A stretch of DNA of 63,060 nucleotides, counting the filler, from Octopus bimaculoides (Eukaryota), in the NCBI RefSeq assembly GCF_001194135.2. It is 4 parts of 4 records of this genome, joined end to end, with 100 filler letters (N's around TTAATTAATTAA, not from the genome) between each part and the next. Parts side by side here need not be neighbours in the genome. Positions count along the whole stretch, not along the records: positions 1 to 17,092 come from NC_068982.1; positions 17,193 to 26,388 come from NC_068985.1; positions 26,489 to 53,066 come from NC_068996.1; positions 53,167 to 63,060 come from NC_068983.1. One strand, written 5' to 3'. The translations under genes and the position numbers were made by a program. The notes below the pieces were generated by a model, which saw only the letters and a list, made by a program, of their open reading frames with translations, searched no databases and was not told the DNA's origin. Of this stretch, positions 3,836 through 63,057 are shown piece after piece. How positions within the stretch are numbered: position 1 is the stretch's first letter; each line of letters starts with the position of its first letter.

Positions 3836-3890
3836 ATCTATAGTGCGATGATATTTCGGAATACAATTCCTTCTTCAGATCTTCTTAGAT
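3836..3890 (-). ncRNA. Minimal type I hammerhead ribozyme, core intact
   Basis: Minus strand reads GAU-CUGAAGA-A-GGAAU(UGU)AUUCC-GAAA-UAUC^AUC. Stem II is 5 bp and stem III is the palindrome AUAU. The cleavage triplet is AUC. Stem I is GAU/AUC plus a distal helix AUCUA/UAGAU. Confidence 0.7.
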
Positions 3891-5019
3891 GGAGTCTCTG
3901 CTATAAACTGTTTACTAACGGCTTTTCATTTTTTTTTCCGGAAGTGTCTCAGTAGTGGTCTCACGAAGCTCATTCTGGAATTCCTCATGAGAAGTGCGTG
4001 AGGTCGGCTATGTTTCAATCTCGTGTGTGTTGGTATATCTGTAGCGCTACTTCTAAGTTATGTGTTATACGTGCAGCTTCTGTTTTTTTTGTTATAAACA
4101 ATACATGAGCATATTGTTAAGAATGAACTTACACACGTCCAGATGTAGCTAAATAATATATTGATTACCAATCTCCAGCCTGTTGTTAATTTGGGGTCCT
4201 AGTCTGTGTATGAGTAGTGCTTCCTTAATTCTTAAATTACCCAAATTTCTTTCATTGTCCTCAATTGTGACTGTTATGCTTTTGTGTGATTTCTTCGTTT
4301 GAATTCAAATCACACCTGACTTGTAGGTTTGTGGAAGTTCCCAAGACATACGAATATTTACAGTAAATATGTTACTGCAATTTTGAGCAACCTCGTGAAA
4401 ATAAATGACGAAATGTCGACAAATGTTCGTGATTAATCTGTCTTGAGGTTGTTTCAAAGTCTTACAGCTTTAAGGATTCATTAAACGTTCTTGTCATAAT
4501 CCCCTTATAATGAGTCTGTGACAAATCTAGGTAATCAGCTCTTTTAGATACAATAGAACACTAATCACGTATATATATATATATATATATATATATATAT
4601 ATATATATATATATATATATATATACATATATTCATACATACACATTCATATGCTGTATGTATGTATGCATGCATATGTGTGTGTGTACGTGTGTGTATG
4701 TGTGTGTGTGAATTGGTGCGTGTATGTGAGTTGGTGCGTGTTTTTGTATGCGTGTATCTATGTAAATATATGTAGGTGTTGGTTGTTAAATTCAAATGAT
4801 TTCAAGAAATTTATAAGCCATTTTCTTTACTGAAGAATCGTTCCATCTCTTTTATTCAAATCCTATTTCCTACCAAACAGACACGCGAGAAAATTCCTTA
4901 AACAAATCTTATGTAACTACACTAATCTGCAGAAAGTTGGCGCACATTTAATGCAATAACGACTTGAAAAATTATTCACTGCATATGTCCACAAAGCGTT
5001 GACATAACAAGCTGTCAAA

Positions 5020-6560
5020 GCCCACTAAACTATTTTAAATATTGCTATATTTTGAGGGATGTTTCTCCACTCAAAGTCTTTTGTAATGTTGTCCGCATTG
5101 GGCAAGTTTTTTAATTGTTGCAGTAGTGATTTGTTCGTCATCACCAAGTCTAGATGGGAGGGGAACATTTTGGTCTGCTTTTTTTTTTTGGATGTGTGTT
5201 CTGTTGGCTGCTGTTTTTTGTTTTGTTGTAGGGCTAGTGGGGTTGGATGGGGAGGGTCGTTTCCTTCTTTTTCTGGAGAATGTCTCCTATCCTTCTCCTT
5301 TGGCTCCTTCCATTTCCTCTTCTGTTTCATTTTCAGATGTTTCCTCACTTGGTTCTTCTGTTTTCTTTTGTTTTTACTTTTGTTTTTCGACACGTAGGGG
5401 AATCGTTGCTTTTCGGGGGAAGGTTGGCATTCGGCCCTAATGTAGCCTTTTTGGCCCCATTTGTAGCAACGAGGTTTCTTCTCCTCTACCTTGACTCACA
5501 GCTTAGTCTCCTCCACCTGTATCGAATCTATAATAATTTCTAAATCGGCAGGGGCTTCTTGTATGATCATCTCTAGTCCCTACCCCTGCCAATTTTGCAA
5601 TTCCAGTGCTGAGGTTTGGAGGATTGAAATTTTATCCTCCAAGCCGTTTATTATGGTTGCCACCAGCCAAGTGGGGTCTACTTCGGGTAGGATGTCTCCT
5701 ACCTTAATCTTGGAAGTTCGCCTCCCAAGATAAGTCAGTACGAGTACTACCTCCCCAGTTTTTAATGTCTCCGTCGACCTTTGTTTTGCCTTTTGTTCTG
5801 ACTTAAATCTGACTTCTGTTGTGGCATACTTCACTTCTCTTGTGATGTATGCCACATCATTCCACATTGGAGAGAGACAGAGCTCCACTGTCTCCTTACT
5901 CGCATTGATCAGTTTCTTTTGTAAATAACTGTACATCATAGTGCATTATGAATTGTTTCACTGGGAGGAGTGATCACAATTTCGCTCCCCACCCTTTTCA
6001 ATATACCTTTATATTTTCCTATTCATCGTTTCCACAGTTAATTGACCTTTTTGAAATAGTGGCTGCTTCTGCAAAATTGCTTCCTTTTTGTCCTTGCAAG
6101 AAATCCTCAGAGGACGGCAGGTTTTTTTATTATTCTGTGCTACTCTCTGTGTTTTTGGCATTCTTCCATGAACTTGAACCCGGTTCATTCCCAGTTTTCG
6201 ACTTTATTGAAGATTTATCCATGTTTGTGTGTCTTTTCACAAAAATATAACAATATTTTCCCCCTTCACTTTAGGGGGAAACGTTAACAAACGTCTGCCT
6301 CAAGCAAACAATGTGTTTTACACAAAAACTCTAAAGAAAACGTTCAATAGCGTAACTACCCAACAGTGTAAATTCAACAAAACATCCACAAATATTACAA
6401 ACTTACGCCAGACCTACGCACAAACAACATTCACGAACAAGTCTGATTCTTTATTGCCCACAATGGGCCAACATAGAGGGACAGCACAACGTGGAGACAA
6501 AAAAAACAAAACAAAAAAAAAACGGATAGAAAAGATGAATAAAATAATGAGATAAAAAAT
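5020..6560 (-). mobile_element. Tx1/L1-like ORF1 (gag-like, RRM-like plus zinc knuckle) relic, copy 1
   Basis: ORF 5580-5939 (YLGRRTSKIKVGDILPEVDPTWL) is followed by EEKKPRCYKWGQKGYIRAECQP, a degenerate CX2CX4HX4C knuckle, and a Lys/Glu-rich tail. It is frameshifted and no ORF2 is seen downstream. Confidence 0.7.
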
Positions 6561-6568
6561 GACAAATG

Positions 6569-60132: not shown

Positions 60133-60632
60133 ATATACGCACACATATATATTGTTTTATTTTGGAAAGGTCATTTTATTTCTTATCATTTTGTTTTTTT
60201 GTCAAATAAACACACGTACTATATTCTATTTTCTTCACTCATTTATTACTGTTATTTTATTATTTTAATGCCTGTCCATTGTCTGGAAATCTTTTGTCGC
60301 ACATCTGTGACCTCTTCAGCAACACTTTTCGTTTTCGTATGTGTTCTTGTTCCACTTATTCCATAACCATTGGTTATCTGGTTACAGGGTGCAATGGGTA
60401 AATATGTATGTAAGTATGTATGTATGCATGTATGTATGTATGTATATATGTATACATGTATCTATGTGTGTGTGTATATATATGTGTGTGTGTGTATGTA
60501 TATGCACAAATATATATACATGTGTATATATAAATATATATATGTATGTGTATATACATATGTATGTATGTATAATTATATATATATAATATATACATAC
60601 AGGATATACATATAATATGTACTTACATGGCA

Positions 60633-61070
60633 CAGGAGTGGCTGTGTGGTAAGTAGCTTGCTTACCAACCACATGGTTCTGGGTTCAGTCCCACTGCATG
60701 GCACTTTGGGCAAGTGTCTTCTACTATAGCCTCGGGCCAATCAAAGCCTTGTGAGTGGATTTGGTAGACGGAAACTGAAAGAAGCCCATCGTATATATGT
60801 GTGTANNNNNNNNNNNNNNNNNNNNNNNNNNNNNNNNNNNNNNNNNNNNNNNNNNNNNNNNNNNNNNNNNNNNNNNNNNNNNNNNNNNNNNNNNNNNNNN
60901 NNNNNNNNNNNNNNNNNNNNNNNNNNNNNNNNNNNNNNNNNNNNNNNNNNNNNNNNNNNNNNNNNNNNNNNNNNNNNNNNNNNNNNNNNNNNNNCGACTA
61001 AAGGCGGTGCTCCCCCATGGCCGCAGTCAAATGACTGAAACAAGTAAAAGAGTAAAAAGTAAAGAGTAAT
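60633..61070 (+). mobile_element. SINE family A with the internal microsatellite lost in a gap
   Basis: Head at 60633-60800, N gap, tail at 60996-61070. Confidence 0.88.
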
Positions 61071-62216
61071 ATGTATAATTATATATATATATATATATAA
61101 TTATATATATATATATATAATTATATATATATATATATATATACCTATTAAAATGGAACAAAAACGCAATAGAGGACATTAAAATGTTCGGACAGATAGA
61201 TGATACAAAGGTGGACAAGACAAACACCAATTAGAAGGACAGGCAAAAAATGACAGGTCATTCTTGGCTTTCTTTCATCAGTCAAGTCCCAGAAGTCACG
61301 ACCATTTTGGGCAGTTACACTTGAGATGGTTTGATCTGGTTGCACCACAAAAAGTCTAAGCTAAGAGCATTAGACCCCTGTGTAAGAAAGCTAGAGAATG
61401 TGTACAGCAAGAAAGGCAAAAAGAAAACAAACCAAAAAACAGAGAACATGGTACACAATTACGAATACAAACAACAAGTGTCTTTTGACTGAGAACGAAT
61501 GAAACTGAGCAGGCATATATGAAGTGAAAGCCTAAAGCAGCAACATGGGAAATGGACACAAGAGGTGCTGAGGATTGGTAGTCAGGCCAAGAAAGAAAAA
61601 TCATGGCCGGCCAGACAGCCTTTGTCATCTCCTTCATAAGGCTCAGCAGTACTTATGCCTATATTAAAATCAATTATGACTGGAAAGTGGTAGACTAGCT
61701 GATTCATTAGAGCATTTGAAAAAATACCTTGCAGTATTTGTTTCAGCTCTTTATATTTTGAGTTCAAATCCTACAAAGGTTAACTTTGATTTTGGTCCTG
61801 ATGAATAAAGTGCCACTCAATTGAATTGACTCTAAATGTCTGTCGTGCCTATACTAGAAAAAAATGAATGCTGCTGTTGTTAATCAGTCCCAAAATTATC
61901 AAAATGTATATATGTGTGTGTATGTATGTGCATATATATATATATATATATGTATGTGTGTATATATATGTATGTATGTGTATATATATATATATATATA
62001 NNNNNNNNNNATGTGTGTATATATATATATATATATATATATATATATATATATATATATGTATGTGTGTTATATATAAATATATATGTGAGAAAAAGTT
62101 CAAAAAGAACAATTCAAACTGTTTGAGAGATCCAAAAATCGAGAAAAAATGATTTCTAATAAAGATTCATCATATTCATAAAAATCAGCCAGAGCAAGTA
62201 ATAAGAACATGAACAT

Positions 62217-63057
62217 AATAGTTGAAAATATTTTGTTATAGATATAAATATACCATAAACAAGTATAAAAAAATGGAGATAAAAAAGATCTTGCGTCAAA
62301 TTTAAATTTAATACAAAATTGGATTCAATACATACGCACGTTTCGAAAGACAATACAAATATGTAAGGAAAAAATTATAATCATAGTAATTATAATTAAA
62401 TTTATGCATTGTCATTCTCATCAGTGTGAGGAATTTTTGGAAGAACATCAAAAAGGTTTAATTAAAAAAAATAAAATAAGATACAATAAGGGAGAATACA
62501 GATGGGGTAATAGGAAAACATCGGATATTTACAAACAAGTTGTAAAAGGGAAAAATAATAATAATAATGAGGGAGACGAAAAAGAAAAAGAAAGACATAT
62601 CAATGTGTATGCAGCTCTATATGTGCAGTAAACTATAACATAAAAATAAAAATCTAATGGATATGTTTAAGAAAATAGTAAGTGGTCGAGATGAAGTGTA
62701 ATGTAAACAAGCACACGTGTGTATAGTAGAATATAACGCAACAGGTTCACTAGCAGAAAAAAGCCATAGAGAGTTATACATATAGATATTAATATTGAAA
62801 AATGAAAAATATATATATTCTACAAGAGGCTTAAAACTAGTAGGCAAGACTATGTTTGAAAAAGATACAATATTTAAGTAAAAATGTACATAGAAGCAGA
62901 GAAAAAGAACAAAAAGAACTTACCAAAGAAAAGCAATGTATGTATTGAATCCAATTTTGTATTAAATCTAATTTTGATTCAACATCTTTAATATCTCCAT
63001 TTTTTAATACTTGTTTATGGTATATTTATACTTATAACGAAATTTTTTTAACTATAT
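62217..63057 (-). mobile_element. Inverted-repeat (Penelope-like) element enclosing a hammerhead
   Basis: 62306-62335 is the exact reverse complement of 62938-62967 (30 nt). The arms continue for about 120 bp and possibly beyond the window. Confidence 0.8.
62314..62438 (-). ncRNA. Type I hammerhead ribozyme, all core positions intact
   Basis: ACA-CUGAUGA-GAAUGACAAUGCA...UGUAUUGUCUUUC-GAAA-CGUGCGUA^UGU. Stem II is 13 bp with one mismatch and closes with G10.1-C11.1. Stem III is self-complementary ACGUGCGU and the site is GUA. Confidence 0.78.

Follow-up and report, generated by a model that had tools for sequence, protein, structure and literature searches.

Five hammerhead ribozyme motifs lie in one stretch of Octopus bimaculoides DNA, three of them enclosed in long inverted arms. 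The question is whether these arms belong to the design of ribozyme-bearing fold-back families, as a preliminary description had proposed, or are a product of insertion. The window is the whole stretch that was analyzed, 63,060 nucleotides including filler, consisting of four parts of four records joined end to end. The five motifs very probably represent the hammerhead-bearing 3′ ends of several Penelope-like element (PLE) families or of their non-coding dependants, with arms made at each insertion and not inherited as a fold-back. Of the earlier proposal, the relation to PLEs is supported, whereas the fold-back families are not.

PLE inserts are described as containing an inverted, 5′-truncated copy and an optional 30–40-bp tail (PMC8557442, PMC3846280), and minimal hammerheads (min-HHRs) as mostly single truncated PLE ends (PMC4209133). 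A further study gives two internal start sites for the RT, cutting of AT-rich DNA on both strands, and a template that remains uncleaved (PMC11167929). Penelope families have already been catalogued in octopus, and the main texts of these catalogues make no mention of hammerheads (PMC13282606, PMC8967140). The text and searched supplement files (one file excepted) of the metazoan min-HHR study hold no octopus example (PMC4209133), and no report of octopus hammerheads was found in the literature searched, with most subscription papers and Repbase/Dfam outside its scope.

Hammerhead motifs in the window

Type I folds had been claimed at 3836−, 16039+, 29138−, 43231−, and 62314−, and all five are present.

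3836–3890, minus strand: site 1, minimal type I hammerhead with an intact core (descriptor; min-HHR consensus); C3 3878, C17 3850, helix III TA, predicted cut after 3850
16039–16084, plus strand: site 2, minimal type I hammerhead fold, two core letters substituted (descriptor, fold); core at 16044, H17 16079, helix III CG
29138–29228, minus strand: site 3, type I hammerhead with an intact core (descriptor); C3 29220, H17 29149, helix III CAAATTG, predicted cut after 29149
43215–43283, minus strand: site 4, full-size type I hammerhead (Rfam HH9 alignment); C3 43268, C17 43238, helix III CATG, predicted cut after 43238
62326–62436, minus strand: site 5, type I hammerhead with an intact core (descriptor); C3 62424, H17 62333, helix III CGTGCG, predicted cut after 62333

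Sites 1, 3, 4, and 5 have an intact CUGANGA/GAAA/UH core with helices I–III; the core of site 2 is broken, two of its six conserved letters being changed. The label “minimal” does not suit site 4, which matches the Rfam Hammerhead_HH9 model along its whole length. Helix II is long and weak with a mismatch at its base at site 3, and long and branched at site 5, where helix I has 3 bp; site 4 has a loop 2 of 6 nt and a bulged helix I. Self-BLAST finds no similarity among the five motifs, as had been stated, and their assignment to PLE- or retrozyme-type hammerheads from several unrelated families is supported.

The motifs are real. A loose descriptor (intact CUGANGA…GAAA, near-palindromic helix III, UH, helices I and II) matches the window four times, whereas 1000 local dinucleotide shuffles average 0.158 matches, and its strictest setting retains two motifs (P 0.002). 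That all are chance matches within AT-rich repetitive DNA is extremely improbable. The descriptor was tuned with the sites already seen, being relaxed once earlier settings had caught two of the four intact motifs, and is thus partly post hoc; Rfam, moreover, detects site 4 alone, below the gathering score (21.9 bits against 52, E 0.0012 in a 111-base search). Against chance stand the shuffles, none of which reached four matches, the PLE endonuclease that precedes site 1, and the high copy number of the site 4 family. Among the matches listed, none of sites 1–5 reaches the gathering score of a Rfam hammerhead family. The whole-window scan, which alone covers sites 3 and 5, has no such family among the best 150 of 177 matches listed; small separate scans also cover sites 1, 2, and 4, and return no hammerhead family at sites 1 and 2.

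Site 1 and its neighboring PLE endonuclease remnant

Site 1 agrees with the metazoan min-HHR consensus (PMC4209133 supplement) and lies on the same strand as, and 271 nt from the stop codon of, an upstream open reading frame (ORF).

4149–4301, minus strand: C-terminus of a PLE GIY-YIG endonuclease, about 50 codons plus stop (similarity, tblastn, HMM)

The remainder of the endonuclease ORF is absent, as in a 5′-truncated copy. The remnant is 76% identical to P0001 over 46 amino acids, and searches with 17 relatives (tblastn and HMM) find it as the sole match in the window (E 1.4e-23). The PLE order of RT followed by a C-terminal GIY-YIG upstream of a hammerhead applies to site 1 only, with the endonuclease C-terminus in the window and the RT in the relative P0006 (RVT_1, then GIY-YIG). 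The relatives have a cysteine-rich RT-EN linker, reminiscent of the Neptune or Nematis clades. Given this remnant, the term “non-autonomous” does not fit site 1, though it is plausible for site 4. Around sites 2–5, no PLE ORF remnant was detected by Pfam frames, by tblastn/HMM in the window, or with one frame at site 5, which weighs against the PLE reading there. Of 100 frames, 80 near the sites and 20 from other places, none had a Pfam match at the curated cut-off, and ARAGORN found no tRNA. Site 2 lies in an insert of about 200 bp flanked by a (TAA)n and a (TTA)n tract, and the inverted-pair analysis of the window shows no inverted arm there.

Anatomy of the site 4 insertion

Site 4 is the one site at which copy number and family layout were measured by reads.

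43030–43282, minus strand: family unit of about 250 nt, non-coding (contig depth)
43283–43400, plus strand: inverted, 5′-truncated, tail-less second copy (junction depth, arm alignment)
43017–43029, plus strand: left copy of a 13-bp target duplication (TSD), T-rich, identical to 43400–43412
43400–43412, plus strand: right copy of the TSD, identical to 43017–43029

The unit begins with the hammerhead at its 5′ end, followed by about 155 nt and then a tail of about 53 nt. Its summed contig depth is 1e5–7.6e5 against 49.5 in the flank (run X2) and is similar in a second species, which bears out the high copy number proposed earlier for at least one family. The arms (43083–43183 and 43283–43400) are 92% identical, with a 16-nt indel. 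At the inversion junction, depth is 89,577 at 43275 but 25.8 at 43283 and 43285: the second arm is specific to one insertion, and the junction is single-copy. In long contigs, the left arm is the only one attached to the ribozyme (43135/43139–43282). Other family joints (15 of 38 listed) each occur in one contig at single-copy depth, with differing breakpoints. Contigs have loose ends at two points, 45 of them at 43027 (AT-rich, agreement 0.48) and 14 at 43081, which gives the family two 3′ ends, and the TSD frames the whole insert. Site 4 thus combines 5′ truncation with an inverted truncated copy at variable breakpoints, and its ends and TSD, together with the TA repeats at sites 3 and 5, display the optional one-end 3′ tail and the TSD or microsatellite target of PLEs.

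The site 4 motif has no match in metagenome contigs. Two RNA-seq runs contain no pile-up of RNA ends at site 4, which fragmented libraries would hide, and family reads are about equal in both orientations in libraries of unstated strandedness and size selection. One joint, 43179 to 43238, lands on C17 in a single contig.

Sites 3 and 5

29019–29136, minus strand: site 3 arm 3′ of the ribozyme, putative direct copy (arm alignment)
29273–29405, plus strand: site 3 inverted arm, putative 5′-truncated second copy (arm alignment)
62218–62335, minus strand: site 5 arm 3′ of the ribozyme, putative direct copy (arm alignment)
62938–63055, plus strand: site 5 inverted arm, putative truncated second copy (self-BLAST, arm alignment)

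The site 3 arms are 87% identical without gaps and those of site 5 are 89% identical. TA repeats flank both sites on both sides. At site 3, (TA)n occurs beyond the 3′ arm (28903–28917) and the inverted arm ends in (TA)n (29401–29435); at site 5, a TA-rich repeat lies beyond the 3′ arm (62071–62087), and the inverted arm, about 510 nt upstream of the ribozyme core, ends in (TA)n at the window edge. The TA repeat is separated from the end of the arm by an extra stretch of about 100 nt at site 3 and about 130 nt at site 5. One 100-aa frame from the site 5 interior had no match to longer proteins. By analogy with site 4, sites 3 and 5 may likewise represent truncation with an inverted copy.

Fold-back design or insertion scar

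Long inverted arms surround the hammerheads at sites 3, 4, and 5, as first described. Of 20 local inverted pairs in the window, six lack a distant copy, and three of these six enclose a hammerhead. Dedicated fold-back ribozyme families, with an RNA that forms a long rod carrying the hammerhead at its tip, would be consistent with the very stable rod predicted for the site 4 region (z −21) and with the enclosure of three of the four intact cores, yet any inverted duplication yields a rod. This design is very improbable. The site 4 junction is single-copy and those of other copies vary, which contradicts the proposed families at site 4, where the second arm is insertion-specific. At site 5, about 600 bp separate the arms, and the ribozyme lies directly against one of them, away from the apex where it had been placed. 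Over the three sites, the G-U-compatible arm mismatches number 10 on the ribozyme strand and 14 on the other, so the ribozyme strand is not biased toward G-U pairs.

The same layout is also frequent in unrelated animals. Among hammerhead loci from metagenome contigs of unrelated animal DNA, 35 of 101 testable loci carry a second, inverted copy of their 3′ end upstream, against 0 of 202 controls (114 loci, less 12 with too little flank and L073, whose contig is shared with L072). These copies fall in 14 of 56 sequence clusters (hand count) and enclose a single core in 21 of the 35 loci; four loci have a 12-bp duplication 28–41 nt beyond the arm. None of the control loci resembles any window unit. 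A PLE protein match (two queries) is found in only 3 of 113, so their PLE identity rests on motif and insertion marks. On the PLE reading, a ribozyme inside long inverted arms is a routine product of PLE insertion, present at about a third of control hammerhead loci; the reading itself matters little, adding octopus examples to a pattern known since 2013–2014.

A fold-back element or MITE does not match site 4, whose family members do not have both arms and their junction in common. The idea that inverted copies stop at the ribozyme cut, as a fossil of in vivo cleavage, was rejected on the distances in the window and the control set: the inverted copy ends 3 nt upstream of the cut at site 5, within 1 nt (lax scoring) or 13 nt away (strict scoring) at site 3, and more than 50 nt away at site 4, while 2 of 23 control ends lie within 5 nt of the cut (4.2 expected) and 29 of 35 control copies run across it.

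For the preferred PLE reading, published PLE work suggests the following course. [quoted passage not shown] RT would usually stop early and leave truncated copies, and another copy of that 3′ end, shorter than the first, would be joined head-to-head. A long copy that just reaches the hammerhead and a short copy that does not would place a single ribozyme between two arms. The putative role of the ribozyme in the parent element is dimer- or protein-assisted RNA processing; the solitary inserts of the window, diverged by 8–13%, are probably inert.

Site 4 as a possible retrozyme-like family

The chance is nearly even that site 4 represents an independent, non-coding family of retrozyme-like type, about 250 nt long, which has a full-size hammerhead as its natural 5′ end and is copied in trans by a PLE enzyme. 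This reading is compatible with the PLE explanation, which it refines for a single site. It is favored by (i) the full-length HH9-type fold, (ii) a helix I that rises to six pairs with the common family letters at 43273 and 43228 (pairing read by hand), (iii) the absence of an ORF, (iv) a unit size inside 150–450 nt (PMC7229834), so that a canonical type I hammerhead occurs in a non-coding, many-copy unit of that range, and (v) the joints 43069 to 43282 and 43229 to 43283, in which the direct copy starts at the same base as in the locus, 14–15 nt before the core. Retrozymes have also been proposed as PLE dependants (bioRxiv 10.64898/2026.07.22.740005). Against it, no head-to-tail joint or tandem array is seen in the window or among the 15 of 38 joints listed, though the reference may lack part of the monomer, and the unit is not highly self-paired, folding no better than shuffles (z −0.62; a diverged copy folded as linear RNA). 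Joints are visible only inside the reference, so a longer upstream part is possible, and a halt shortly before the core, seen within 6 nt at 4 of 21 control loci, may be a common property of PLE ends.

A tentative proposal, with a somewhat less than even chance, is that site 4 is an octopus retrozyme-like SINE, a non-coding unit of about 250 nt that starts with a full-size hammerhead and is present in thousands of dispersed, mostly single copies. It would show every mark of PLE insertion, namely an inverted and truncated partner, an optional tail, and a 13-bp TSD. If true, it would be direct anatomical evidence that PLE enzymes insert canonical-hammerhead retrozymes, and that these can spread without tandem arrays. 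If non-autonomous, the family would offer a high-copy test case for the proposed, mechanistically undemonstrated retrozyme–PLE link.

Comparison with known systems

MITEs and fold-back DNA transposons resemble the window loci in having a short core between long inverted repeats that look terminal. The window loci differ in that the inverted junction is not common to copies, the element extends about 53 nt past one arm, and the 5′ ends are truncated.

Site 4 resembles animal non-LTR retrozymes in being non-coding, about 250 nt long, and full-size type I with a palindromic helix III (PMC7229834), and in its very many copies alongside PLEs in the same genome (bioRxiv 10.64898/2026.07.22.740005). 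Full-size ribozymes typify retrozymes more than they do PLEs, a point against the PLE reading (PMC7229834). Site 4 departs from retrozymes in that its unit is not highly self-paired and that no tandem array was seen in the window or among the joints listed (PMC7229834). Its PLE-type inversion and tail are not described for retrozymes in the accessible text of PMC7229834 and bioRxiv 10.64898/2026.07.22.740005, and no report of retrozymes with such inversions was found in the literature searched, most subscription papers lying outside it.

Sites 1 and 2 share the CUGANGA-H-G…C-GAAA-palindrome-UH layout of the min-HHRs in the pLTRs of metazoan endonuclease-bearing PLEs; sites 3 and 5 differ in their longer helices II and III, and site 4 is full-size (PMC4209133). 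As in other metazoans, several unrelated families occur per genome, mostly as single motifs from truncated copies, and site 1 likewise lies behind an endonuclease ORF (PMC4209133). Compared with published PLE inserts, those in the window are small (0.2–1 kb) with little or no ORF (PMC3846280, PMC8557442). The extra stretches of about 53 nt (the site 4 tail) and, possibly as tails, about 100 and 130 nt (sites 3 and 5) all exceed the published 30–40 bp, which also counts against the PLE reading. The layout of the insertions is otherwise that of PLEs: a head-to-head, inverted, shorter copy, a tail at one end, a 13-bp TSD, and AT-rich or microsatellite targets (PMC3846280, PMC8557442).

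Hammerhead motifs and neighboring repeats

The window is AT-rich animal DNA, rich in microsatellites, gaps, and interspersed repeats; among the parts searched, the nearest named protein bears the label Octopus bimaculoides. The preliminary description placed five hammerhead folds in it, and all five positions are correct:

Site 1: 3836, minus strand, hammerhead with intact core (C3 at 3878)
Site 2: 16039, plus strand, hammerhead with good helices and two altered core letters (16044)
Site 3: 29138, minus strand, hammerhead with intact core (C3 at 29220)
Site 4: 43231, minus strand, hammerhead with intact core (C3 at 43268)
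Site 5: 62314, minus strand, hammerhead with intact core (C3 at 62424)

The loosest descriptor, relaxed once earlier versions had recovered only two motifs, gives four matches in the window versus a shuffle mean of 0.158 (0/1000 shuffles reach four), and the strictest gives two (P 0.002). Of the five, site 4 alone is recovered by Rfam, one of the checks named in the preliminary description, as a full-length, sub-threshold Hammerhead_HH9 match; small scans of sites 1 and 2 return no hammerhead, and the whole-window scan has none among the 150 of 177 rows listed. The label “minimal” type I suits sites 1 and 2, which conform to the metazoan minimal consensus (PMC4209133, in part); the site 4 ribozyme has the full-size type I fold.

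A weak candidate sixth hammerhead-like match (8329-8353, minus) has one core mismatch and lacks helix III. The ~200-bp insert carrying site 2 (15914-16215) is flanked by oppositely oriented microsatellites, (TAA)n on the left and (TTA)n on the right. Elsewhere, a minus-strand frame (16881-17090) looks like the C-terminal end of a non-LTR retrotransposon of the R4/Dong type, and broken plus-strand frames (54915-56222) resemble the reverse transcriptase (RT) end of an RTE-type LINE; neither has a Pfam match. Two related decayed minus-strand frames with a zinc-knuckle-like motif (5028-5945 and 6652-7301) are possibly LINE ORF1 remnants.

A Penelope-like endonuclease remnant at site 1

The proposed link to Penelope-like elements (PLEs) is borne out at site 1. 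The minus-strand frame 4301-4152 resembles the C-terminus of a GIY-YIG protein, with 76% identity to the related protein P0001 and 18 protein matches (E up to 0.001), one of which, an unrelated repeat protein, was left out. A second relative, P0006, has an RVT_1 domain followed by GIY-YIG, and its similarity extends to the DNA immediately beyond the ORF stop. The hammerhead core lies on the same strand, 271 nt behind that stop. Site 1 is the end of an autonomous PLE; no endonuclease remnant was found at any of sites 2-5. P0001 itself is an Octopus gene model in which ~270 aa of PLE RT/endonuclease are joined to a MAP7-domain protein, probably through annotation fusion.

Inverted arms

The three inverted arm pairs described at sites 3, 4, and 5 are present (100-130 bp each, 87-92% identity without gaps). 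At sites 3 and 4, the 100-135-nt spacer is mostly taken up by the ribozyme; the arms of site 5 lie ~600 nt apart, with the ribozyme directly against one of them. The association is not due to chance: three of the six local inverted pairs without a distant window copy hold a hammerhead. Among the arm mismatches, those compatible with G-U pairing are no more frequent on the ribozyme strand than on the other (10 vs 14), the pattern that neutral decay of an initially perfect DNA inversion would leave.

Other inverted pairs occur in the window. The hairpin at 24903-25012 (46-bp arms, 89%, 18-nt loop) has no second window copy, lacks a hammerhead core, and may be a PLE-type inversion whose truncation point falls below the ribozyme. 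An older pair at 31210-31389 (~75-bp arms, 78%, 32-nt loop) may carry an 8-bp duplication (31068, 31451) and yielded no hammerhead core. A 31-bp pair (49204-49234/49780-49810; separation 545 bp) also lacks a distant window copy.

The site 4 family

Site 4 was compared with two DNA runs from two species and two RNA runs. Summed contig depth, which is not a copy number, rises from 49.5 in the left flank to 1e5-7.6e5 across 43027-43282; the ratio of 2,000-15,000 therefore places the family on the order of thousands, and the unit is high-copy rather than single-copy. The unit is made up of the ribozyme and the left arm plus ~53 nt past the arm. Depth falls to 25.8 at 43283-43285, so the right-arm join is unique to this locus, and the family joints, among the 15 of 38 listed, are each single-contig with differing breakpoints. 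At site 4, the proposed fold-back family is not supported. Two 3′ ends, 43027 and 43081, are marked by loose ends; the right arm starts at the inner one and hence lacks the tail. A 13-bp duplication surrounds the whole insert (43017-43029, 43400-43412).

Core positions are absent among the 40 differences listed (111 more exist), and the letters common in the family at positions 43273 and 43228 supply extra helix I pairs. RNA reads come from diverged copies, with 5/4143 and 2/3526 at least 99% alike, totals that take in an adjacent SINE-like piece. Both orientations are equally represented, the flanks are empty, and neither RNA run has a pile-up of ends at site 4.

Breaks in several independent family copies fall close together around 43183-43188, at ~50 nt to the 3′ side of the cut site, with joints to 43283-43286; the RT may stall here. 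In X2, one of the DNA runs, junction depth is about half that of the flank.

Site 4 may, at somewhat less than even odds, be a dispersed PLE-dependent retrozyme. Its unit is non-coding and ~250 nt long, though not notably self-paired, and its ribozyme is full-size, like those of animal retrozymes (PMC7229834, in part), a class for which PLE dependence has been proposed (2026 preprint, bioRxiv 10.64898/2026.07.22.740005, in part). The direct copy begins at 43282-43283 in three inversion joints, but joints are visible only within the reference used, such that an upstream continuation would lie outside its view, and a tandem joint is absent among the 15 of 38 joints listed.

Hammerheads in metagenome contigs

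A generic hammerhead pattern, applied to one 64th of a metagenome contig collection, gave 114 control loci that, judging by their repeat families, appear to be animal host DNA. An upstream inverted copy of the ribozyme 3′ sequence occurs at 35 of 101 testable loci versus 0/202 controls, although the loci group into families and are therefore not fully independent. Nearly all inverted copies end 40-60 nt beyond the cut site and have inner breakpoints at scattered positions, and 21 of the 35 loci hold a single core between two arms. The cut site shows no excess of breakpoints and is spanned by 29/35 copies, consistent with an uncleaved template. Duplications of 12 bp lie 28-41 nt beyond the arm at four loci (vs one control), and only 3/113 loci have a PLE protein match.

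Opposite-strand pairs of intact hammerheads occur at loci L030 (751-1022, 240 bp apart) and L072 (2001-2763, 730 bp apart), an arrangement reported previously (PMC4209133, in part).

Comparison with known Penelope-like insertions

Penelope families are already catalogued in octopus (PMC13282606, PMC8967140, both in part), and Rfam hammerheads have been counted in giant squid; a literature search, with repeat libraries and some supplements outside its scope, found no report on octopus hammerheads. PLE copies are 5′-truncated and often have, besides a truncated copy in inverted orientation at the 5′ end, a 30-40-bp tail at one end (PMC8557442, PMC3846280, PMC8969392, each in part); self-priming has been put forward for the inverted copy (PMC3846280, in part). 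The Anolis PLE protein cleaves AT-rich DNA on both strands and begins reverse transcription at two internal sites, which set the tail, with ribozyme cleavage dispensable in vitro (PMC11167929, in part). Minimal hammerheads mostly occur singly, have low activity, and are likely to act as dimers (PMC4209133, in part). Each of the published insertion marks is seen at site 4; sites 3 and 5, which have arms and TA-repeat flanks, may by analogy be PLE-type insertions. The five motifs are real and likely PLE-type 3′ ends, a known kind, and the inversions are likely insertion-specific.
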